From Candidatus Rokuibacteriota bacterium (GTDB lineage: Bacteria > Methylomirabilota > Methylomirabilia > Rokubacteriales > CSP1-6), in NCBI GenBank assembly GCA_036802765.1, contig DAIRVP010000001.1:2153-66152 (forward strand): DNA of 64,000 nucleotides, given 5' to 3'. This document shows positions 4,607-26,288 of this stretch, piece by piece. Position numbers and translations under genes: made by a program. Positions within the stretch are counted from its first letter, which is position 1. Every line of letters starts with the position of its first letter. The notes below the pieces were generated by a model, which saw only the letters and a list, made by a program, of their open reading frames with translations, ran no database searches and had not been told where the DNA came from.

Positions 4607-5440
4607 GTGGAGAAGACGATCCAGGAGGGCGGTTTCGGTCGGCTGCTGCGCGAGTGGCGGTCGCGCCGCGGCATGAGCCAGCTCGATCTTGCGGTCGAAG
4701 CCGGCGTATCGTCACGCCATCTGAGCTTCGTGGAGACCGGCCGCGCGTCGCCGAGTCGCGAGATGGTGGTGTTGCTCGCCCGGGCGCTGGACGTTCCGTT
4801 CCGCGACCGCAACGATCTCCTCACGGCGGCGGGGTATGCTGCAGTCTATCGCGCAACCAGCCTCGATGCGCCCGCGCTCGCCCAGGCGCGCCGGGCGCTC
4901 GACTACATCCTGCGTCAGCAGGAGCCGTACCCGGCGCTCGTGCTGGATCGCCACTGGAACGTGCTGAAGGTCAACGACGGCAGTGCGCGCGTGCAAGCCG
5001 TCTTTCTCGACGCCGCGAGCGTGTCCGCGCTGGGACCGCCCAACGCGATGCGCCTCATGTTCCATCCGAAGGCATTCCGCCCGTGGATCGTGAACTGGGA
5101 GCCGACGGCGGCGTCGCTCATCCAATGGCTGCACCGCGACGTGGCCACGGGCTTTGCGGACGACGAGACGCGCGCGTTGCTCGACGAGCTCCTGTCGTAT
5201 CCGGACACGCCGCGACAGTGGCGCGCGCTGGACCTCGACGCCTCGCCGGCGCCCTTCTTGCCCATCGAGTTTCGCAAGAACGATCTCGTGCTGCGATATT
5301 TCACGACGCTCACGATGCTCGGCACGCCCCACGACATCACGCTGCAGGAGGTGCGTGTCGAGAGCTTCTTTCCGGCGGACGAGGCGACGGAGAAGGCTAC
5401 GGCAGCCCTCTCCGCCCCCTCCGCCGAGCGACTACGCTGA
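4607..5440 (+). CDS. XRE-type HTH transcriptional regulator with an MmyB-like ligand-binding domain
   Basis: N-terminal LREWRSRRGMSQLDLAVEAGVSSRHLSFVETGRASPS is an HTH. The rest is an MmyB-like C-terminal domain. It is divergent from the thioesterase operon. Confidence 0.8.
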   Translation: MEKTIQEGGFGRLLREWRSRRGMSQLDLAVEAGVSSRHLSFVETGRASPSREMVVLLARALDVPFRDRNDLLTAAGYAAVYRATSLDAPALAQARRALDYILRQQEPYPALVLDRHWNVLKVNDGSARVQAVFLDAASVSALGPPNAMRLMFHPKAFRPWIVNWEPTAASLIQWLHRDVATGFADDETRALLDELLSYPDTPRQWRALDLDASPAPFLPIEFRKNDLVLRYFTTLTMLGTPHDITLQEVRVESFFPADEATEKATAALSAPSAERLR

Positions 5441-5893
5441 GCGCTTCGCCGAGCGGCGCGAGACTTCCTGCGCCGCTTCGAGCGCCTCGTCTTTTTCCGG
5501 CGCGCGGAACGCCAGCGAGCTGAGCGTCACCACGCCCACCAGCTGATCCTCGTCGTCCAGAACCGGCAGCCGACCGACCTGCGCTTGGGCCATCGTCTGC
5601 ATCGCTTGCTCGGTGTTCCACTCGGGATGCGCAACGATGGCGTTGATCGAAAGACAGTCACCGACGGCGGTGGACGCGGGATCCGCGTCACGCGCGACCG
5701 CGCGGACGACGATGTCGCGGTCGGTGATGACGCCGAGCACCTTGCCGTCCTGTACGACCGGCAGCATGCCGACGTTCGCCTCCTCCATCGCGCGCGCCGC
5801 GTCGGTGAGCGATGCAGCCGGCTCGATGCTGACGACGTCCTGAACCATGATGTCGCGCACTTTTCGCTCCGATCTTCTCTGGCGCTTGGTCAT
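5432..5893 (-). CDS. CBS-domain pair protein
   Basis: Tandem CBS motifs (DIMVQDVVSIEP...; GVITDRDIVVRAV...). ATG at 5893 is preceded by GGAGGA. The upstream part of the listed ORF is Arg-rich, off-bias extension. Confidence 0.75.
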   Translation of the reverse strand: MTKRQRRSERKVRDIMVQDVVSIEPAASLTDAARAMEEANVGMLPVVQDGKVLGVITDRDIVVRAVARDADPASTAVGDCLSINAIVAHPEWNTEQAMQTMAQAQVGRLPVLDDEDQLVGVVTLSSLAFRAPEKDEALEAAQEVSRRSAKRSA

Positions 5894-6298
5894 TGACGCG
5901 TCCTCCTTCCGCTCAGATGAGGGCTCGAGATCAGAGCCGCTTGTACGGAGCGAACGACATGCCACCGAGTGCGGCTGGCCGCCTCCTTGCACCTGTTGCA
6001 ATCCTTGCCGCACTGCTGCCGGTTGCGCGCGTCGGCGCCGCCGACCCGACACTGAGCGACATCGCGAGCTGTAACCAGGAGGCGGCGCGCCGGGCGCCGA
6101 CATCACGCAGCCCGGAAACACGGGGACCAGCACCGAGAAGACGGATCCCAGCGGGGCGGTGATCACGCAGTCGCCCGACCCGCTGCTGAGGGGCATGGAC
6201 GCGGAGAAGGCGAACGACACCGCGTATCGAACGGCCTATCGCGAGTGCATGCGCGCCAAGGGCGCGCGCTGAATGGAGCGGCGACTTATACTGCCCGC

Positions 6299-7534
6299 GT
6301 GCCTCGGATCAATGAACACTACCTGAACCTGCGCGCCGCCTACCTCTTCGCCGAGATCCGGCGACGGCAGGCGGCGTTCAGCGCCGCGCATCCCGCCGCG
6401 CACGTCATCGACCTGGGCGTCGGTGACGTGACGCGGCCGCTGCCGCCCGCGGTCGTCCGCGCGCTCCACGAGGCCGCCGACGACATGGCGCGGGTCGAGA
6501 CCTTCAAGGGCTACGGGCCATACGTCGGGTACGAGTGGCTGCGCGCCGAGGTCGCTGCGCAGGACTTCGGCCCGCGCGGCGTGACGCTGGCCCCCGACGA
6601 GATCTTCATCAGCGACGGCGGCAAAAGCGACAGCGCCAATCTTCAAGAGATTTTCGCCACCGAGTGCGTGGTCGGCGTGATGGATCCCGTCTATCCCGTG
6701 TATGCCGATGCCAACGTGGTCGCCGGGCGCTCCGGCGCGGCGGATGCGGCCGGCCGCTACGCCGGCATGGTCTACCTGCCGTGCGTCGCGGAAAACGACT
6801 TCCAGCCGGCGCTGCCCGATCGCCGCGTCGACCTCATCTATCTCTGCTATCCGAACAATCCGACGGGCGCCGTGGCGACACGCGAGGCGCTGGCGCGTTG
6901 GGTCGATTACGCGCGCGCGCACCAGGCCGTGATCTTCTACGACGCCGCGTATGAAGCGTACATCGCCGACGAGGCCGTGCCGCACTCGATCTACGAGATC
7001 CCGGGCGCGCGCGACGTCGCGCTCGAGTCCCGCTCGTTTTCGAAGAACGCGGGGTTCACCGGGATGCGTCTGGCCTATACGGTCGTGCCGAAGCAGGCGA
7101 TGGGCCGCAGCGCGGACGGCCGCACGCACAGCCTCAACGCGCTCTGGACCCGCCGGGTGAACATGAAGTCCAACGGGCAGCCCTACATCGTCCAGAAAGC
7201 CGCCGCGGCGATTTATACGCCCGACGGTCAAAAGCAAGTGCAGGCGCTGATCGACTTCTACATGGCGAACGCGCGTGTGATCCGCGACGGGCTGCTCGCG
7301 GCCGGCTTCACCGTGTATGGTGGTCGCAACGCGCCCTACATCTGGTTCCGCACGCCGTCGGGCGTGTCGTCGTGGGATTTCTTCGATCGGCTGCTGGCGG
7401 ATGTCCAGATCGTCGGCTCACCGGGCGCGGGCTTCGGTCCGAGCGGCGAAGGCTACTTCCGGCTCACCGCCTTCGGCTCACGCGAGCAGACCGAGGAGGC
7501 GGTGGAGCGCATTCGCAGGCGGCTTCATCCGTGA
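6299..7534 (+). CDS. dapL: LL-diaminopimelate aminotransferase
   Basis: N-terminus RINEHYLNLRAAYLFAEIRRR and the SFSKNAGFTG lysine motif. GTG start at 6299 was chosen by homology. The stop overlaps the next start (TGATG). Confidence 0.8.
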   Translation: MPRINEHYLNLRAAYLFAEIRRRQAAFSAAHPAAHVIDLGVGDVTRPLPPAVVRALHEAADDMARVETFKGYGPYVGYEWLRAEVAAQDFGPRGVTLAPDEIFISDGGKSDSANLQEIFATECVVGVMDPVYPVYADANVVAGRSGAADAAGRYAGMVYLPCVAENDFQPALPDRRVDLIYLCYPNNPTGAVATREALARWVDYARAHQAVIFYDAAYEAYIADEAVPHSIYEIPGARDVALESRSFSKNAGFTGMRLAYTVVPKQAMGRSADGRTHSLNALWTRRVNMKSNGQPYIVQKAAAAIYTPDGQKQVQALIDFYMANARVIRDGLLAAGFTVYGGRNAPYIWFRTPSGVSSWDFFDRLLADVQIVGSPGAGFGPSGEGYFRLTAFGSREQTEEAVERIRRRLHP

Positions 7535-17993: not shown

Positions 17994-18016
17994 ATTCGCC
18001 GCACTGGAGACCGCAC

Positions 18017-18724
18017 ATGGCTGACCTCGCAACGCTCGATCGGACGTACGACTTCATCATGCGGCGAATCATCGCGGACGGACGCGCGCCGCATTACACC
18101 GAGATCGCCTCGGAATTTCGCGTTGCACCCGACGTCGGACTCGGGCTGCTGCGTGATCTCATGGCCGTCGGCCTGCCGAACTGGCTTCATCCTCACACCG
18201 ACCTGATCGCGTCGTTCCCGCCGTTCAACAATCTGCCGACGCAGTACCGCCTCGGCGTCGGCGGCGAGTGGAAGTGGTTCGCGCAGTGCGGCCTCGAAGC
18301 GCTCGCCGCCTGCTGGGCGTTCCCTGGACGCGGCGTGGACATCGAAGCGCCGTGCCTCGACTGCGGCAAGTCCATCGAGGTCACCGTGCGCGATGGCCGG
18401 ATCGAGCGCGCGGTGCCGGCCACGATCCGCTTCTACGTCTCGGTGCCGGTGCGCGACTGGCGCGCGAACATCACCTATACCTGAAGCCACATGAACCTCT
18501 TCCGGTCGGAAGAGGATGCGCGTCGGTGGTCGGACTTCGTGCCTGGCAGCGACGCGGGCATTGTCACGCTCGAACAAGCGATGGCGATCATGAGCACCCC
18601 ACGCCACCGCAACCGATTCGACGGCCGCTACGTTTCGTCGTCGCCGAGCTACGGCGCGGCGTTCTTCGCGAAGCTGCGCGAGGTGACCGGCGGCAGCCCT
18701 TACTGGGAGCCGCCGGCCACCTGA
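18017..18724 (+). CDS. Alkylmercury-lyase (MerB) family protein interrupted by an in-frame TGA at 18482-18484 (candidate Sec codon or nonsense/pseudogene)
   Basis: ORFs 18017..18484 and 18491..18724 are in the same frame. Conserved MerB C-terminal motifs (FxxSVPxxDW; GIVTLEQAMA) lie on both sides of the TGA. Confidence 0.5.
18496..18515 (+). other. SECIS-like hairpin (8-bp perfect stem cctcttcc/ggaagagg, loop GGUC) starting 12 nt after the UGA
   Basis: Seen directly in the sequence. Confidence 0.45.
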
Positions 18725-19536: not shown

Positions 19537-20202
19537 ATGACGACCCCGCGCTCGCGCATCATCGCGAGCAGTGACCTCGGCTGGCAGGAATTCCGGCCTG
19601 GCATCAGCTTCAAAATTTTGTGGGAAGACCCCGCCACGAAACGGCGGGCGCAGATGACGCGCTTCGCGCCGGGCGCCCGGCTGCCTCAGCATCGGCACCT
19701 CGGGGACGAGCTGATCTTCGTCATCGAGGGCGCGCTGACCGACGAGGCGGGAACGGTCACCGCCGGCAACGTCGTGTACCGGCCCAACGGGTGCATCCAC
19801 AACGTCTCGACGCAGAACGGCGCGACGGCCCTCGCCGTGCTCACCGGCGACATCGAGCCGACCGACGACGCGGCCGGCGCGGCGCGCTCGCAGATCGTCA
19901 CGCTGAGCGAGCGGCCGTGGGTCGACGCGCGCCCGGGCGTGCGCCAGAAGCGGATCTGGGAGGACAAATCCACCGAGCGCCGCGCGATTCTGGCGCGCTT
20001 CGAGCCGGGTGCGAAGCTCCCGCTGCATCGTCACGTCGGCGACGAGCTGATCTTTCTGCTCGAGGGCTCCAATGCGGACGAATCGGGCGTCGTGGCCACC
20101 GGCAACCTGAACTACCGCCCGAACGGCTGCGTCCACAGCGTGACGACCCAGAACGGCGCAACGGTATTCGCCGTCGTCTGGGGTCATACAGAACCGGTCT
20201 GA
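19537..20202 (+). CDS. Tandem-cupin protein (ChrR-like cupin domains)
   Basis: Two repeats of ...RF.PGA.LP.HRH.GDELIF..EG...DE.G....GN..YRPNGC.H. Confidence 0.7.
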   Translation: MTTPRSRIIASSDLGWQEFRPGISFKILWEDPATKRRAQMTRFAPGARLPQHRHLGDELIFVIEGALTDEAGTVTAGNVVYRPNGCIHNVSTQNGATALAVLTGDIEPTDDAAGAARSQIVTLSERPWVDARPGVRQKRIWEDKSTERRAILARFEPGAKLPLHRHVGDELIFLLEGSNADESGVVATGNLNYRPNGCVHSVTTQNGATVFAVVWGHTEPV

Positions 20203-20213
20203 GAGGAGTCGAC

Positions 20214-21281
20214 ATGGAGATTCCACGCACGATGAAGGCGACCGTCCTCGTCGCGCCGCACCGCTTCGAGCTGCAAGAGCGGCCCGTGCCGGTGCCCGGC
20301 GACGAAGACGTGCTCGTTCGCGTGCGCGCCTGCGGCGTCTGAGGCACAGATCTGAAAATCATCCACACCGGCATGCCCCAGATGCCGCCGTACGGCGAGT
20401 TCATCTTCGGGCACGAGTACGCGGGCGACGTCGTTGCCATCGGCCGGACCGTGGACGAGTTTCAGGTCGGCGACCGGGTGGTCGTCGAGGCGCACATGGG
20501 CTGCCGTCGCTGCGAGAACTGCATTCGTGGCCTGTACACCGCGTGTCTGAACTACGGCAACGCCAAGCGCGGACACCGCGCGAACGGCTTCACCACCAAC
20601 GGCGGGCTCGCGGAATACGCCGTGAACCACGTCAACACGCTCTATCGGATCCCCGAGGGCGTCTCGTACGAAGAAGCGACGGTCGTGATGACGTCCGGCA
20701 GCCCGCTGTTCGGTCTCGAGAACGCCGGCGGATACTTTGCCGGTGAGACCGTGGCTGTGCTCGGGCCCGGACCGATCGGGCTGATGGCGATCCAGCTGGT
20801 GAAGGCGCTCGGCGCGACGCGCGTGATCCTGACCGGCACGCGAGCCTCGCGGCTGGCCATGGGGCGTCAGCTCGGCGCCGATGTGATCGTGAACAGTCGC
20901 GAGCAAGATCCGATCGAGGCGGTGATGACGGCGACCGGTGGCAAGGGCGCCGACCTCGTCATCGACTGTGCGGGCGCCGACGAGACGTTCGATCAGTCGC
21001 TGAAGATGACGAAGTCGGGCGGCAAGGTGCTGCTCGTCGCGTTCTATCACGGCCCGGTGACCGCCGACGTCAGTCACGCTGTACGCCGCAACGTGACGAT
21101 CTACACCGAGCGCGGCGAGGGCGGCACCAGCGTGGGGCGCGCGCTCGCGCTGCTGGCGGCCGGTCGCCTCACCGCCAAGCCGCTGATCACGCACCAGTTC
21201 CCGCTCTCCCGCGTGCACGAGGCGTTCGACGTGCTCGAAAAACGGATCGGCGATCCTCTGAAAGTCGTTCTCAATCCGTGA
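20214..21281 (+). CDS. Zn-dependent alcohol dehydrogenase (MDR family) with an in-frame TGA at 20340-20342 replacing the catalytic Zn-ligand Cys (candidate Sec or nonsense)
   Basis: ORFs 20214..20342 and 20373..21281 share one frame. Read-through gives VRVRACGV-U-GTDLKIIHTG...GHEYAG...CRRCENC. RBS GAGGAG. Confidence 0.6.
20369..20387 (+). other. Weak hairpin (6-bp stem ccggca(u)/a(u)gccg... loop gccccag) 27 nt after the ADH UGA
   Basis: Seen in the sequence. There is no U in the loop. Less SECIS-like than the other two. Confidence 0.2.
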
Positions 21282-22222
21282 GGCGTGCGCTCGGGCTCGC
21301 CGCCCTCCTGCTGCTGGCAGCAGTCGCGCCGGCGACGGCGTTTCCCGACAAGCCGCTCGAGCTGACCGTGCTCTTCGGGGCCGGCAGCGCCGCGGACCTG
21401 CTCGCGCGCAAGCTCGCGGAGCTCGCTGGGCGCGACCTCGGCCAGCCCGTGGCGGTCGTGAATCGCACCGGCGCCGGCGGCGCGCTCGGGTACACCTACG
21501 TGAAGAGCCAGCCCGCCGACGGCCACGCGCTGGTGTGGAACAGCAACAGCGTCAGCACCGCCTATCACGCCGGCAACATGAAGCTCGACTACAACGCATT
21601 CGCCGGCGTGGCGACGTTGACGAGCGAGCCGGTGTCGCTGGCGGTCAAAGCGGATGCGCCGTGGAAGGCCATCCGCGAGCTGCTCGCGCATGCGAAGGCG
21701 CATCCGGGTCAGGTGCGCATCGGCAACTCGGGCCGCGGCAGCTTCACGCATCTCGTCGCCGTCGCGCTGGAGAACCGCGCCGGCGTCAAGCTGACTCATG
21801 TGCCGTTCGGCCGCGAGCTCGCGGTGACGACGGTGCTCGGCGACAAGATCGAGGCGAGCGTGCAGCTGCCCGCGGAGATCATGGCGCAGATCACCGGCCG
21901 ACAGGTCCGGGTCCTGGCGGTGAGCGGCAACAAGCGCCTCGCCTCCCTGCCCGACGTGCCGACGCTCAAAGAATCCGGCGTCGATCTCACGATGACGCTG
22001 TGGCGGGGCGTGGCGGTGCCGAAGGGCACGCCTCCGGCCGTGATCGTGCGGCTCGAGCGCGCGTTCACACAGGCAGCGCAGAGCGCCGAGTTCCGCGACT
22101 TCGCGACGCGCATGGGCGCCGTCGTCGACGTGCGCGGCGCGGCCGACTTCGATGCGTTCATCGCGCGCGACGACCGCGAGATCGCCGCGCTAATGGAGCA
22201 GATCGGGCTCAGGAAGCAGTAG
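21278..22222 (+). CDS. tctC: Tripartite tricarboxylate transporter substrate-binding protein TctC
   Basis: Bug/TctC family. GTG overlaps the ADH stop. Confidence 0.85.
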   Translation: MRRALGLAALLLLAAVAPATAFPDKPLELTVLFGAGSAADLLARKLAELAGRDLGQPVAVVNRTGAGGALGYTYVKSQPADGHALVWNSNSVSTAYHAGNMKLDYNAFAGVATLTSEPVSLAVKADAPWKAIRELLAHAKAHPGQVRIGNSGRGSFTHLVAVALENRAGVKLTHVPFGRELAVTTVLGDKIEASVQLPAEIMAQITGRQVRVLAVSGNKRLASLPDVPTLKESGVDLTMTLWRGVAVPKGTPPAVIVRLERAFTQAAQSAEFRDFATRMGAVVDVRGAADFDAFIARDDREIAALMEQIGLRKQ

Positions 22223-22224
22223 CG

Positions 22225-22692
22225 GTGGGCCGCGACCGCTGGAGCGCGGCCGGGCTCGCACTGCTGGCCATCATGTATCTCCTCGTCGCCCGGCGTTATC
22301 CCCTCGACACGCTCGCCACGCCAGGCCCGGGCGTCATCCCGCTGATCGCGGGAGTCGCGCTGCTCGCGACGGCGATCTGGCTGTTGATCGTCGCGAGAAC
22401 CGCGAGGCCGGCTCGTGATGTGGGCGGCCTGAGCGGGAGCGGCGCGGCTCCGACACGCCCGATCGAATCGGTGCCTGTTCTCAGGTCGCCGTTCGTGCTG
22501 ACCGCGGCGCTCATCCTCTACGCGGCGCTGCTTCCGCGACTCGGGTTCATCGCCTCCTCGTTCGCACTCGTCGTGCTCGCCTCGCGGCTCATGGGCGCGC
22601 GTGGCTGGTGGCGTCCCGTCGTGCTCGGGCTCGGCGTTGCCGCCACCGCTTACCTGCTCTTCGCGCGCTGGCTCGGCGTGCCGCTGCCGTGA
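22225..22692 (+). CDS. tctB: Tripartite tricarboxylate transporter TctB (small membrane subunit)
   Basis: 4-TM 155-aa protein between tctC and tctA. GTG start. Confidence 0.6.
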   Translation: MGRDRWSAAGLALLAIMYLLVARRYPLDTLATPGPGVIPLIAGVALLATAIWLLIVARTARPARDVGGLSGSGAAPTRPIESVPVLRSPFVLTAALILYAALLPRLGFIASSFALVVLASRLMGARGWWRPVVLGLGVAATAYLLFARWLGVPLP

Positions 22693-24167
22693 GCGAGCTC
22701 TTCGTCGCGCTGACACCGGCGAATCTGCTCGCGTGCTTCGTCGGCACGGTGCTCGGCACGATCGTCGGCGTGCTGCCCGGGCTCGGGCCCGCCGGCGCGA
22801 TGGCCCTGGTGCTGCCGCTCACGATCAAGCTAGGGCCGACGGCCGGTCTGATCATGCTCGCCGGCATCTATTACGGCGCGATGTACGGCGGCTCGACGAC
22901 GTCGATCCTCGTCAACGTGCCCGGCGAGGCGGCGAGCGTCGTGACCACGATCGACGGGTATCGCCTTGCGCGAAAAGGCCGCGCCGGTGCCGCGCTCGCC
23001 ATCGCTGCGATCGCGTCGTTCGTCGCGGGCACGATCAGCGTCGTCGCGCTGCAAGTCGCCGCGCCGTTCGTCGCTCGGGCGGCGCTCGCGTTCGGTCCCG
23101 CGGAATATTTCGCCTTCGCACTGCTCGGTCTCGTGCTGCTCGCGAATCTCACCGGCGGCTCGCGCGCGAAATCGCTCGCGATGGTGCTCACCGGTCTCAT
23201 GCTGTCCACGGTCGGCATGGACCCGCTGGGCGGCACGGTGCGGTTCACGTTCGATCTGGCCGGCGCGCAGGCCGGGCTCAGCTTCGTCGCCGTCACGACG
23301 GGACTCTTCGGTGTCGCCGAGGTGCTTGCGAGCATGGCCGAGCCGGCGGCAAGCAGCGCCGTCGCCCGCGTGCGCTTCCGCGATCTCTATCCGAACCGCG
23401 AGGAGCTGCGTCGCTCGGTGCCGCCGATGCTGCGCGGCACCGTGCTCGGCTTTCTCGTCGGCCTCGTACCGGGACCGGCCGCGACGATCGCGTCGTTCGT
23501 GTCGTACGGCATCGAAAAAAAGGTAAGCAGACATCGTCGCGAGCTCGGCACCGGCGCCATCGAAGGCGTCGCCGGCCCCGAGGCGGCGAACAACGCGGCC
23601 GCCGGTGGCGGGATGATTCCACTACTCTCGCTCGGGCTGCCGTTCACGCCGTCGACGGCGGTGCTGCTGAGCGGGATGCTGCTGATGAGCGTGACGCCGG
23701 GGCCCTTTTTGTTGCGCGACCATCCGAGCGTTTTCTGGGGCGTGATCGGATCCTTCTACGTCGGCAACGTGATGCTGCTCCTGCTCAACCTGCCGCTGGT
23801 CGGCGTCTTCGCGCGCGTCGCCACGATTCCGCCGAAGTATCTGATGCCCGGCGTGCTCGTGCTCTGCGCGGTGGCCGCGTACTCGGACAACAACAACATC
23901 TTCGACGTGTGGGTCATGGTCGTCGCGGGCATCGCCGGCTGGGCGATGCGCGCGCTCGATTTCTCTCCCGCGCCGCTGGTGCTCGGACTCGTGCTCGGCC
24001 CGGTGCTCGAGCGCTCACTGCTGCAGGCGCTGACGATCGCGCGCGGCGAGGTCCGCGGCCTGTGGGCATCGGGCCCCGCCGCGGTCATGCTGGCGGCCGC
24101 CGTGGTCGCCTTCGTCGCGCCGGGTCTCGTGGCGCTGGTCCGCCGAAGCGCCACGCGGACGACTTAG
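22689..24167 (+). CDS. tctA: Tripartite tricarboxylate transporter permease TctA
   Basis: Polytopic membrane protein. GTGA overlap with tctB. Confidence 0.85.
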   Translation: MSELFVALTPANLLACFVGTVLGTIVGVLPGLGPAGAMALVLPLTIKLGPTAGLIMLAGIYYGAMYGGSTTSILVNVPGEAASVVTTIDGYRLARKGRAGAALAIAAIASFVAGTISVVALQVAAPFVARAALAFGPAEYFAFALLGLVLLANLTGGSRAKSLAMVLTGLMLSTVGMDPLGGTVRFTFDLAGAQAGLSFVAVTTGLFGVAEVLASMAEPAASSAVARVRFRDLYPNREELRRSVPPMLRGTVLGFLVGLVPGPAATIASFVSYGIEKKVSRHRRELGTGAIEGVAGPEAANNAAAGGGMIPLLSLGLPFTPSTAVLLSGMLLMSVTPGPFLLRDHPSVFWGVIGSFYVGNVMLLLLNLPLVGVFARVATIPPKYLMPGVLVLCAVAAYSDNNNIFDVWVMVVAGIAGWAMRALDFSPAPLVLGLVLGPVLERSLLQALTIARGEVRGLWASGPAAVMLAAAVVAFVAPGLVALVRRSATRTT

Positions 24168-24602: not shown

Positions 24603-26288
24603 ATGACAAGCGCAGAGCCCATGTACGACGTTGTCTGGCCGCTCGCCCCGTCCGCCGCACCGCCGGGATCACTCGCGGCGCGTTCCCAGGATCTTCGCGG
24701 CAAAACCGTCGGTGAGCTATGGGATTACCTGTTCAAGGGCGAGGAGATCTTTCCCCTCATCCGAACGGCGCTCGAGGCCCGCTATCCCGGTATCCGCTTC
24801 GTCGAGTTCGAGACCTTCGGCTCGACGCACGGCCGCGACGAGAAAGAGCTCGCAGCGACGCTGCCCGGACTGCTGCGCCAGCACGGCTGCGACGCGGTGA
24901 TCTCCGCCGTCGGCGCCTGAGGATCGTGCACGCCCGCCGTGTTGCGGGCCGCCGCGATCGCCGAGCGCGCCGGAGTGCCGAGCGTCTCTATCGTCACGAC
25001 ACCGTTCATGCAGCAGGCCGCGGTCGTGTCCAAGGGCGTCGGCCTGCCGTCGCTGCCGATCGCTGAGTACCCCGGCGTGCCGATGACCGACGGCTCGGAC
25101 GCCGTCGCACGAAAGATCGACGCGCTGTTGCCACAGATCGTGGCGGGCCTCGCCGGCGCCCGCGACGTCGTGCGCACCGCAGTCGCCGAGCCGGGGCCGC
25201 GCGACATCGTGGCGCGTGGCACGCTCGACGAGGTCCAGGAGCTCTATCACCGCAATCTTTGGAGCGACGGGCTGCCGGTGATTCCCCCGACGATCGACCG
25301 CGTCGAGCGCTTTCTCGCTCAAACGCGGCGCGCACCAGACGAAGTGATCGGACGGCTGCTGCCCGAGAACCGTGCGGCCACCGTCTGGAGCATCGCGGTC
25401 AACGGCGTCATGGCAGGCTGCCGGCCCGAATACATGCCGGTCCTCGTTGCTATCGTGGAAGCCATCGCGGAGCCGATCTTCCGCGTCGAGGACGCCGGCT
25501 CGACGCCGGGCTGGGAGCCGCTCGTGATCGTGAGCGGCCCCATCGCCAGGCGTCTCGACCTCAATCACGGTCAGGGCGTGATGCGTGTGGGGCGCCAGGC
25601 CAACACGAGTCTCGGTCGCTTCTTGCGGCTCTACCTTCGCAACGTCGCGGGGCTGCGAATTCCGCCCGGCGCGGGCGACAAGGGCGGCATCGCGGCCTCG
25701 TTCAACGTGGCGCTGGCCGAAGACGAAGACGCCGCTGCCGCGCTGGGATGGCCGACGTTCGGCGCGGACCAAGGCTTCACGCGCGACGACAGCGTGGTCA
25801 CCGTGCAGAGCGTGGTGAGCATCAGCCCGCCGATCTACTCCGCCGGCACGCGCGCGCTCGAGCATGCGCGCATCCTCGCCGAGGTGTTCGGCGGCGCGTG
25901 CAGCTACTGGTCGTCGATCGGCATGAAGTACGCGCGCTGGGAGCCGCTGCTCGTGCTGGGCCCGTCGATCGCGCGTGTGATCGCCGACGACGGCTGGTCG
26001 AAGGACGATCTGCGCCGTTACCTCCACGAGCACGTGACGATCACCGCACGCCAGGCCGAGACGTATGCGCTGCAGGTCGGCGCAACGTCGTTCACGCTCG
26101 ACGCCCACGTCAAGGCCGGCGTGCTGCCCGCCTCCTACGCGACGTCCAGCGATCCGGAACGCGCGGTGCCGGTGTTCGTGCAGCCGGAGAAGATCGGGAT
26201 TCTCGTCGCCGGCGATCCCGGCCGCAATCAGTCCAAAGGCTACGTCAACAACCACATTCAGGGTGGCCGCATCAGCAAGAGGGTTTGA
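24603..26288 (+). CDS. Candidate selenoprotein with a U-G-S-C motif (in-frame TGA 24918-24920) and a long C-terminal domain of unknown function
   Basis: ORFs 24603..24920 and 24939..26288 share one frame. GC3 bias is continuous through the whole 561 codons. Context reads ...HGCDAVISAVGA-U-GSCTPAVLRAAAIAERAGVPS... Confidence 0.55.
24932..24949 (+). other. SECIS-like hairpin (gcccgc / CGUGUU / gcgggc) starting 12 nt after the UGA
   Basis: Seen directly. GU in the apical loop. Confidence 0.45.

Follow-up and report, generated by a model that had tools for sequence, protein, structure and literature searches.

The apical loop of the selenocysteine insertion sequence (SECIS) of Escherichia coli fdhF reads GGUC. 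In the consensus for bacterial elements (bSECIS), 16–37 nt separate the UGA codon from the apical loop, rules govern loop size, stem length and folding energy, and the loop opens with a G followed by G or U (PMC13188914). According to BSepDB, 12.6% of bacterial selenoprotein genes have no canonical SECIS; no explanation is given for them, and wider models have been called for. A 2026 review also describes a Methylomirabilota metagenome-assembled genome (MAG) with 63 predicted selenoprotein genes (PMC13188914). The present analysis concerns a 64-kb stretch of DNA from Candidatus Rokuibacteriota bacterium (64,000 nt, hereafter the window) and, within it, a gene for a zinc-type alcohol dehydrogenase (ADH) of the MDR (medium-chain dehydrogenase/reductase) superfamily that contains an in-frame TGA. 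This TGA is interpreted here, with a probability of roughly 0.7 and on comparative sequence evidence, as a selenocysteine (Sec) codon in a Rokubacteria/Methylomirabilota MDR dehydrogenase of the polyol/threonine-dehydrogenase type, recoded by means of a discontinuous SECIS.

The in-frame UGA and its conservation

Translation of the ADH gene starts at ATG 20214, which is preceded by a Shine–Dalgarno sequence (GAGAGGAG, 20201–20208), and its terminal TGA (21279–21281) overlaps the GTG start (21278) of a downstream TctC gene. As a preliminary description of this DNA had reported, the gene is open in one frame from end to end apart from a lone internal stop, the TGA of codon 43, in the context R-A-C-G-V-stop-G-T-D-L-K. 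The protein contains the Pfam domains ADH_N (PF08240, 7.9e-28) and ADH_zinc_N (PF00107, 2e-30), and hence both the GroES-like and the Rossmann domain required of the MDR zinc ADH superfamily, along with the nucleotide-binding motif G-P-G-P-I-G. In a phmmer search of the PDB, it aligns with the L-threonine 3-dehydrogenase (TDH) of Pyrococcus horikoshii (2d8a, E=5.5e-51), whose I-C-G-T-D segment supplies the catalytic-zinc Cys; codon 43 stands opposite this Cys. U43, His67 and Glu68 stand opposite Cys42, His67 and Glu68 of 2d8a, so that the catalytic ligands are all present with the Cys encoded as UGA, and the structural-zinc lobe retains its four Cys residues. The exact placement of the TGA, and the presence of the G-H-E and structural-zinc motifs in frame downstream of it, had been proposed beforehand and are borne out by this alignment. 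Cys40 (20331–20333) and residue 43 together make up a C-x-x-U motif. The protein scores far below the NCBIfam equivalog cut-offs both for TDH (TIGR00692, 216.9 bits vs 458) and for scyllo-inosose 3-dehydrogenase IolM (NF041097, 219.3 bits vs 450).

A search for TGA-bearing orthologs in related genomes, as the preliminary description had suggested, was productive. Ortholog DNA was drawn from one genome per species and from metagenomes, with orthologs taken as sequences of at least 78% identity. Codon 43 is TGA in 85 of these sequences (80 unique), termed Sec forms, and TGC or TGT in 29 (28 usable), termed Cys forms; no third option was seen. TGA forms thus make up about three-quarters of the close orthologs sampled. 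The titled records are nearly all Rokubacteria/Methylomirabilota MAGs from soil, groundwater and lakes, and represent independent assemblies. Cys occupies this position in all of the remoter homologs (identity of 60% or less), and a protein search returned 29 full-length relatives of 355–376 residues with Cys at the site in all ten that were inspected, including one that is 92% identical (P0001). A conserved in-frame UGA to which Cys codons of homologs align is the pattern expected of a selenoprotein gene.

Selection on the coding sequence points the same way. The start codon, frame and length are intact in every Sec form, and the ratio of nonsynonymous to synonymous polymorphism (pN/pS) in these forms is 0.21–0.27 for codons 1–42 vs 0.20 for codons 44–355 (0.19–0.32 in Cys forms). 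Immediately 3′ of the UGA, the residues G-T-D-L-K-I-I-H are kept through synonymous changes, with codons 44–53 under purifying selection like the rest of the gene; constraint of the kind expected in a selenoprotein gene is therefore present on either side of the UGA. Elsewhere, UGA serves as an ordinary stop, most open reading frames (ORFs) with coding-type composition ending in TGA, the ADH gene among them; judging from these frames, UGA is not reassigned in this organism.

Around 88 of the 120 best database matches are annotated as proteins of 299, 302 or 309 residues that begin just past the TGA position (P0021, P0023, P0026, P0036, P0056 and P0091 among them), under the names 'zinc-binding dehydrogenase' or 'L-iditol 2-dehydrogenase' in NCBI and JGI. 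Such entries, together with an in-frame ATG at 20373 after the TGA, would suit a true stop, whether in a pseudogene, through a sequencing error, or in a split gene encoding a 42-residue peptide and a 302-residue protein from Met54. This explanation is given almost no weight: the TGA recurs in the 80 unique sequences, the frame is never disrupted in them, codons 1–42 and 44–53 are under purifying selection equal to that on the remainder of the gene, and a protein started at Met54 would be without a zinc ligand and part of its GroES-like domain. Sequencing error, recent TGC-to-TGA nonsense decay (both left as options by the preliminary description) and a split gene are effectively excluded by these observations, and the earlier judgement that a chance nonsense mutation at this very codon is unlikely gains weight from them. 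The short entries are gene-calling artefacts at an unrecognised in-frame stop, and the Sec-ADH is systematically mis-annotated in public databases. The decoding of codon 43 as Sec in place of the zinc-ligand Cys, which had also been suggested earlier, is thus strongly supported by the conserved TGA, the Cys orthologs, the pN/pS values and the two canonical Sec sites found elsewhere in the window.

A further residue of the active site was compared across the same sequences. In related MDR enzymes, the position equivalent to Glu152 of TDH supplies a fourth catalytic-zinc ligand. This position is occupied by Met159 (window 20688–20690) in all Rokubacteria Sec and Cys forms; among homologs below 60% identity, it is Thr in 44 of 55, with Val, Asn and Glu also found. 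With a Met thioether adjoining a selenolate, the chemistry of the metal might be altered.

A candidate long-range element downstream of the UGA

The preliminary description saw no strong hairpin just past the UGA, and the 66 nt 3′ of the codon indeed fold no better than shuffled sequence (z = 0.21), with only trivial pairs predicted there by RNAalifold. Nothing in the window exceeds the Rfam gathering thresholds, and the sole weak match within 20300–20560, to MAT2A_D (E = 0.77), is attributable to chance. A helix of GGCGUCUGAGG with CCCCAGAUGCC, which would place the UGA within its stem, was considered and rejected, as orthologs whose codon 56 specifies Lys or Met do not keep it. For want of a strong hairpin, the preliminary description had judged the Sec reading less well supported here than at the other two sites. 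The impression that a SECIS is missing was overturned by synonymous-site conservation at codons 80–91, and the apparent lack would be explained by a remote hairpin, designated P2, which a long-range helix, designated P1, would connect with the surroundings of the UGA (Table 1).

The signal was located by comparing third-codon-position variability between Sec and Cys forms over the whole gene, with column 1 of the element set at the U of the UGA (window 20340). Codons 86–91 (GGC GAC CGG GTG GTC GTC) are the sole six-codon window with zero third-position entropy in the 80 Sec forms; the corresponding value is 0.78 bit in Cys forms, and the gene-wide mean of the Sec forms is also 0.78 bit. These codons encode the predicted P2 hairpin (-10.2 kcal/mol), all 18 positions of which are invariant in the 80 unique Sec forms except for one U-to-C change that converts a G.U pair to G-C, whereas the same region varies at six synonymous sites in Cys forms.

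P1 is a predicted helix of 17 positions, and its strands show the same contrast. Codon 83, within the 3′ strand, is the rare Phe codon UUU (20460–20462), or CUU, in 79 of 80 Sec forms and UUC in 27 of 28 Cys forms, such that its third base (column 123) is U in 79/80 vs 1/28. In the fold, UUU pairs with the AAA of Lys48, a codon choice made by 54 of the 80 Sec forms and by no Cys form. Pair 15:124 is G-C in 79/80 Sec vs 10/28 Cys forms, and 15 pairs of P1 can form in 99% or more of the Sec forms. Covariation is seen at 12:127 (CG/UG/UA), at 18:121 (AU/GU/GC), where AAG pairs with CUU in L023, L028 and L149, and at 19:120, where A.G becomes C-G in 11 sequences.

Both helices were predicted de novo by RNAalifold from 24 and from 80 Sec forms, in three windows, and neither was predicted from Cys forms. 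Single-sequence minimum free energy (MFE) folds include P1 for 79/80 of the Sec and 6/28 of the Cys forms, the figures for P2 being 78/80 and 2/28, while mean pair probabilities in a subsample of 20 Sec and 14 Cys forms are 0.95 vs 0.43 for P1 and 0.98 vs 0.12 for P2; within a 350-nt context, these probabilities are still 0.84 (P1) and 0.87 (P2). A tentative closing helix, P0, would pair a segment upstream of the UGA with one beyond P2. It is 95.9% paired in alignment A4, and its pairs -4:168 and -3:167 form in 91–95% of Sec vs 46–61% of Cys forms. Third-position conservation of codons 36–42 and a purine preference at column 9 are likewise Sec-specific. Taken together, P0, P1 and P2 are 96.9% paired in the 80-sequence alignment vs 25–55% for slid controls, and none of 500 shuffles of that alignment reached the observed covariation score.

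The association between the UGA and P1/P2 can also be followed through its losses. In a neighbour-joining (NJ) tree built from ADH gene regions outside the element, an approximate tree of about 850 nt, the Cys forms make up nine maximal clades nested among Sec forms, with seven Sec/Cys changes by parsimony and Sec at the root. All but one of the Cys sequences have changed UUU to UUC, all have changed AAA to AAG, and P2 usually carries 1–4 substitutions. The link between UGA and P1/P2 has therefore been severed several times over, in the same manner. Repeated joint loss of this kind would be expected if P1/P2 serve the UGA only.

A 6-bp stem at 20369–20387 had been noted as the best local candidate. 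The stem itself exists; its role as a Sec-specific signal does not stand. Its mean MFE is -8.07 kcal/mol in Sec forms vs -8.23 in Cys forms, and its pair probability is close to 0.00 in the former and 0.29 in the latter. Because it is equally stable in both, it is probably a by-product of coding and not the recoding signal. It is nevertheless conceivable, if improbable, that the UGA encodes Sec with this stem as the functional SECIS and with P1/P2 as accessory structures, for example ribosome-pausing or mRNA-stabilising ones, like the eukaryotic Sec redefinition element. The stem fits a loose bSECIS consensus, with a 7-nt loop led by G, a stem of 5–6 bp and a position about 32 nt past the UGA, within the 16–37 nt range, and its energy in Sec forms is compatible (PMC13188914). 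The GGC codon of Gly53 is also somewhat more conserved in Sec forms, with pair 33:45 paired in 96% vs 82%. Against this, the stability in Cys forms follows from the G-M-P-x-M-P codons, the stem is mismatched in five Sec forms and all but unpaired in the Sec-form ensemble, the G of its loop is followed by C and not by G or U, and the main Sec-specific constraint lies at P1/P2.

Under the favoured reading, a discontinuous SECIS formed by P1 and P2, Sec43 would replace Cys in holding the catalytic zinc together with His67 and Glu68. P1 would loop out 84 nt of coding sequence and thereby set P2, with its GGGU loop, next to the single-stranded segment UGA-GGN-ACR-G. Beginning 7 nt past the UGA, P1 would be able to remain folded at the mRNA entrance, and the P2 loop would be bound, like an ordinary SECIS loop, by SelB with its Sec-tRNA while the UGA occupies the A site. 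P2 has the loop, stem and energy called for by the bSECIS rules (a GGGU loop, 7 bp and the energy given above; rules from PMC13188914). With P1 closed, its loop would occupy virtual positions 19–22, compared with about 21–26 for the two canonical sites in the window. The arrangement may have arisen because the codons next to the UGA encode a near-invariant active-site segment and cannot form a suitable hairpin; the codons of L-K-I-I-H and V-D-E-F-Q were largely complementary beforehand. The role of Sec is a matter of speculation: it might tune the Lewis acidity of the zinc, or a reversible Se-S bond might protect an oxidation-prone zinc thiolate. The comparisons show the conserved UGA, selection on either side of it and the Sec-specific conservation, covariation and repeated loss of P1/P2; we infer the insertion of selenium, the binding of P2 by SelB, the geometry and a Zn-Se bond. 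The fuller proposal—a discontinuous SECIS with a SelB-binding hairpin more than 100 nt from its UGA in what would be the first natural enzyme with a selenolate on its catalytic zinc, possibly with a C-x-x-U redox switch—is given slightly better than even odds.

Several observations weigh against this interpretation. The P2 loop lies 133 nt past the UGA in the linear sequence, outside the 16–37 nt of the consensus; only with columns 11–128 looped out by P1 does the path from UGA to P2 shorten to about 15 nt plus a helix junction, and the argument from this 'effective distance' depends on a predicted fold. P1 covaries modestly, with double changes at three pairs, and much of its complementarity is present in Cys forms too (83.5% paired in an 11-sequence set), the codons of L-K-I-I-H and V-D-E-F-Q being complementary by chance. 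The P2 stem, as far as the aligned sequences go, is backed by its invariance in Sec forms and its divergence in Cys forms, not by compensatory change, and the count of independent losses is bound to the approximate tree mentioned above. In addition, the window and the fetched loci yielded no selA, selB, selC or selD gene (with Pfam run on 20 window ORFs for SelA, SelB and SelD), and ARAGORN detected no tRNA-Sec across the window and 27 loci. Indirect support for Sec machinery in this genome comes from the window's two canonical Sec sites and from what is published on the phylum (PMC13188914).

The presence of selenium at position 43 is itself inferred, and stimulatory RNA structures are able to promote read-through without SelB. 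The conserved UGA could accordingly be decoded otherwise: as Cys, the usual residue of the enzyme family at this site, by a tRNASec-like tRNACys and a SelB-like factor, or as Trp or Cys through near-cognate read-through stimulated by P0/P1/P2. This is considered quite unlikely. Sec alternating with Cys at a conserved metal ligand is the standard signature of a selenoprotein; in size, G/U loop and effective position, P2 matches a hairpin bound by SelB; the window contains two canonical Sec sites; and Trp as a zinc ligand would abolish activity, at odds with the purifying selection on the gene.

A few orthologs stand apart from the rest. Locus L031 carries tandem ADH paralogs (4724–5790 and 6001–7065) whose identity with the ADH of the window is 73% and 81%; in each, the zinc-ligand codon is TGA, P2 is identical and P1 is largely kept. 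In the Sec form of L013, GAT (Asp) replaces CAC (His) at His67 and CGC (Arg) replaces the codon of Pro59, which may reflect decay of this copy or a variant introduced in assembly. Two contigs of long-read MAGs, labelled Miltoncostaeaceae and Actinomycetes (L032 and L033), contain a Rokubacteria-type ADH at 88–91% identity with frameshifts, which probably reflects binning or consensus errors and not lateral transfer.

Gene neighbourhood and other probable selenoprotein genes

Table 1. Features of the dehydrogenase locus and other Sec sites, in window coordinates
Feature	Position	Strand	Basis
MerB-like (PF03243) protein, TGA 18482-18484, context A-N-I-T-Y-T-U-S-H-M-N-L-F	~17999-18724	+	
Apparent operon: ChrR-type cupin 19537-20202, Sec-ADH, TctC 21278-22222, TctA 22608-24167	19537-24167	+	
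MDR zinc-type alcohol/polyol dehydrogenase gene, 355 codons, proposed Sec at residue 43	20214-21281	+	Pfam, PDB match, single-frame translation
P0 5′ strand GCGGC, tentative closing helix upstream of UGA	20332-20336	+	RNAalifold
In-frame UGA, codon 43, proposed Sec codon at catalytic-zinc Cys position	20340-20342	+	PDB alignment, ortholog conservation
P1 5′ strand AUCUGAAAAUCAUCCAC, columns 11-27, codons 46-51, begins 7 nt past UGA	20350-20366	+	RNAalifold, MFE folds
Local 6-bp stem CGGCAU-GCCCCAG-AUGCCG of the preliminary description	20369-20387	+	Probable by-product of G-M-P-x-M-P codons
His67 and Glu68 codons (G-H-E), remaining catalytic-zinc ligands	20412-20417	+	PDB alignment
P1 3′ strand GUGGACGAGUUUCAGGU, columns 112-128, codons 80-85	20451-20467	+	RNAalifold, Sec/Cys contrast, covariation
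P2 SECIS-like hairpin GGCGACC-GGGU-GGUCGUC, 7 bp, loop 20476-20479, 1 nt past P1; candidate SelB-binding element	20469-20486	+	Conservation, folding
Cys97, Cys100, Cys103, Cys111 codons, structural-zinc lobe	20502-20546	+	Translation, PDB alignment
P0 3′ strand GUCGC, tentative	20506-20510	+	RNAalifold
UGSC-family domain (NF041046) fused to a ~450-residue C-terminal region, TGA 24918-24920, motif V-G-A-U-G-S-C	24603-26288	+	

The ADH gene lies in an apparent operon with genes for a cupin and for components of a tripartite tricarboxylate transporter (Table 1). The order ADH-TctC-TctA recurs in many Sec-form and Cys-form loci, although some Sec forms (L012, L017, L018, L021 and L023–L026) have a different gene neighbourhood. 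This setting suggests a hydroxy-carboxylate or polyol-acid as the ADH substrate.

Two further genes in the window contain an in-frame TGA followed by a SECIS of textbook layout, with apical loops at about nt 21–26 from the U of the UGA. In the UGSC-family gene, the hairpin GCCCGC-CGUGUU-GCGGGC, enclosed within GAUCGUG/CGCGAUC, begins one base past the UGA, and both TGA and hairpin are kept in L001, L007 and L009. In the MerB-like gene, an 11-nt spacer past the TGA is followed by the hairpin CCUCUUCC-GGUC-GGAAGAGG, which has an 8-bp stem and is like the SECIS of E. coli fdhF. The SaoL family of MerB-like proteins has a C-U dipeptide; because the Sec context of the window protein is not of this kind, it may belong to a different subfamily. 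It was the adjacency of ORFs that revealed the MerB-like site, since at 68% GC the search for additional Sec sites by third-position GC content (GC3) or by hairpins proved too noisy.

Comparison with known selenoproteins and SECIS elements

On the sequence evidence, this is probably a known kind of system, Sec recoding, for which both the protein family and the SECIS architecture are new. The 2026 table, with its 119 families and subfamilies of prokaryotic selenoproteins, lists no MDR or zinc dehydrogenase, NCBIfam contains no selenoprotein model for MDR zinc ADH, and a full-text literature search found no paper tying Sec to this family or to its zinc ligand. Likewise, no bacterial SECIS bridged by a long-range helix was found in the literature searched.

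If the interpretation is correct, an abundant, soil-wide enzyme family would be added to the selenoproteome, and Sec on the catalytic zinc of an NAD(P)-dependent dehydrogenase would represent a new kind of selenium–metal site, for which natural Sec/Cys ADH pairs more than 90% identical allow direct comparison. Discontinuous elements could also account for part of the approximately 12% of bacterial selenoprotein genes without a canonical SECIS, and predictors based on hairpin proximity would miss such genes; the rule of an immediately downstream hairpin would then be relaxed. Confirmation would, in addition, loosen a constraint on the design of recombinant selenoproteins, as the codons beside the UGA would be freed from the need to form a hairpin.

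With respect to the protein, the ADH shares its domains, the four-Cys lobe and the G-x-G-x-x-G motif with the TDH of P. horikoshii and Thermus thermophilus and with sorbitol dehydrogenase (2d8a, 2dq4 and 1pl6; E = 5e-51 to 7e-44); where TDH has zinc-ligand Cys42 and Glu152, however, the ADH has the proposed Sec43 and Met159. Sec in place of a metal-ligand Cys, with Cys isoforms in related organisms, is already known from formate dehydrogenase (Mo/W) and [NiFeSe] hydrogenase (Ni) (PMC13188914), and the ADH would show the same relationship. The metal of the ADH would differ from those of the Mo/W and Ni selenoenzymes in being zinc, a redox-inert metal, and the enzyme would be a dehydrogenase dependent on NAD(P).

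With respect to the RNA, P2 resembles bacterial SECIS elements of the E. coli fdhF type in lying inside the coding sequence, downstream of the UGA, as a short GC-rich hairpin with a small G-led loop (PMC13188914), and this loop is similar to the GGUC loops of fdhF and of the window's MerB-like gene. It departs from them in its distance from the UGA, 133 nt to the loop as opposed to 16–37 nt (PMC13188914), which would require a long-range helix over 84 nt. Signals distant from the UGA, and RNA structures near the UGA that aid them, are known from the 3′ untranslated region SECIS of archaea and eukaryotes and from the eukaryotic Sec redefinition element, and the ADH arrangement is similar to this extent. 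Archaeal and eukaryotic elements, however, lie outside the ORF, with kink-turn or GAA_A motifs and SBP2/eEFSec-type factors, whereas the ADH element is a bacterial-type hairpin within the ORF; and the distance that protein bridges in archaea and eukaryotes would, according to the predicted fold, be bridged here by RNA–RNA pairing.

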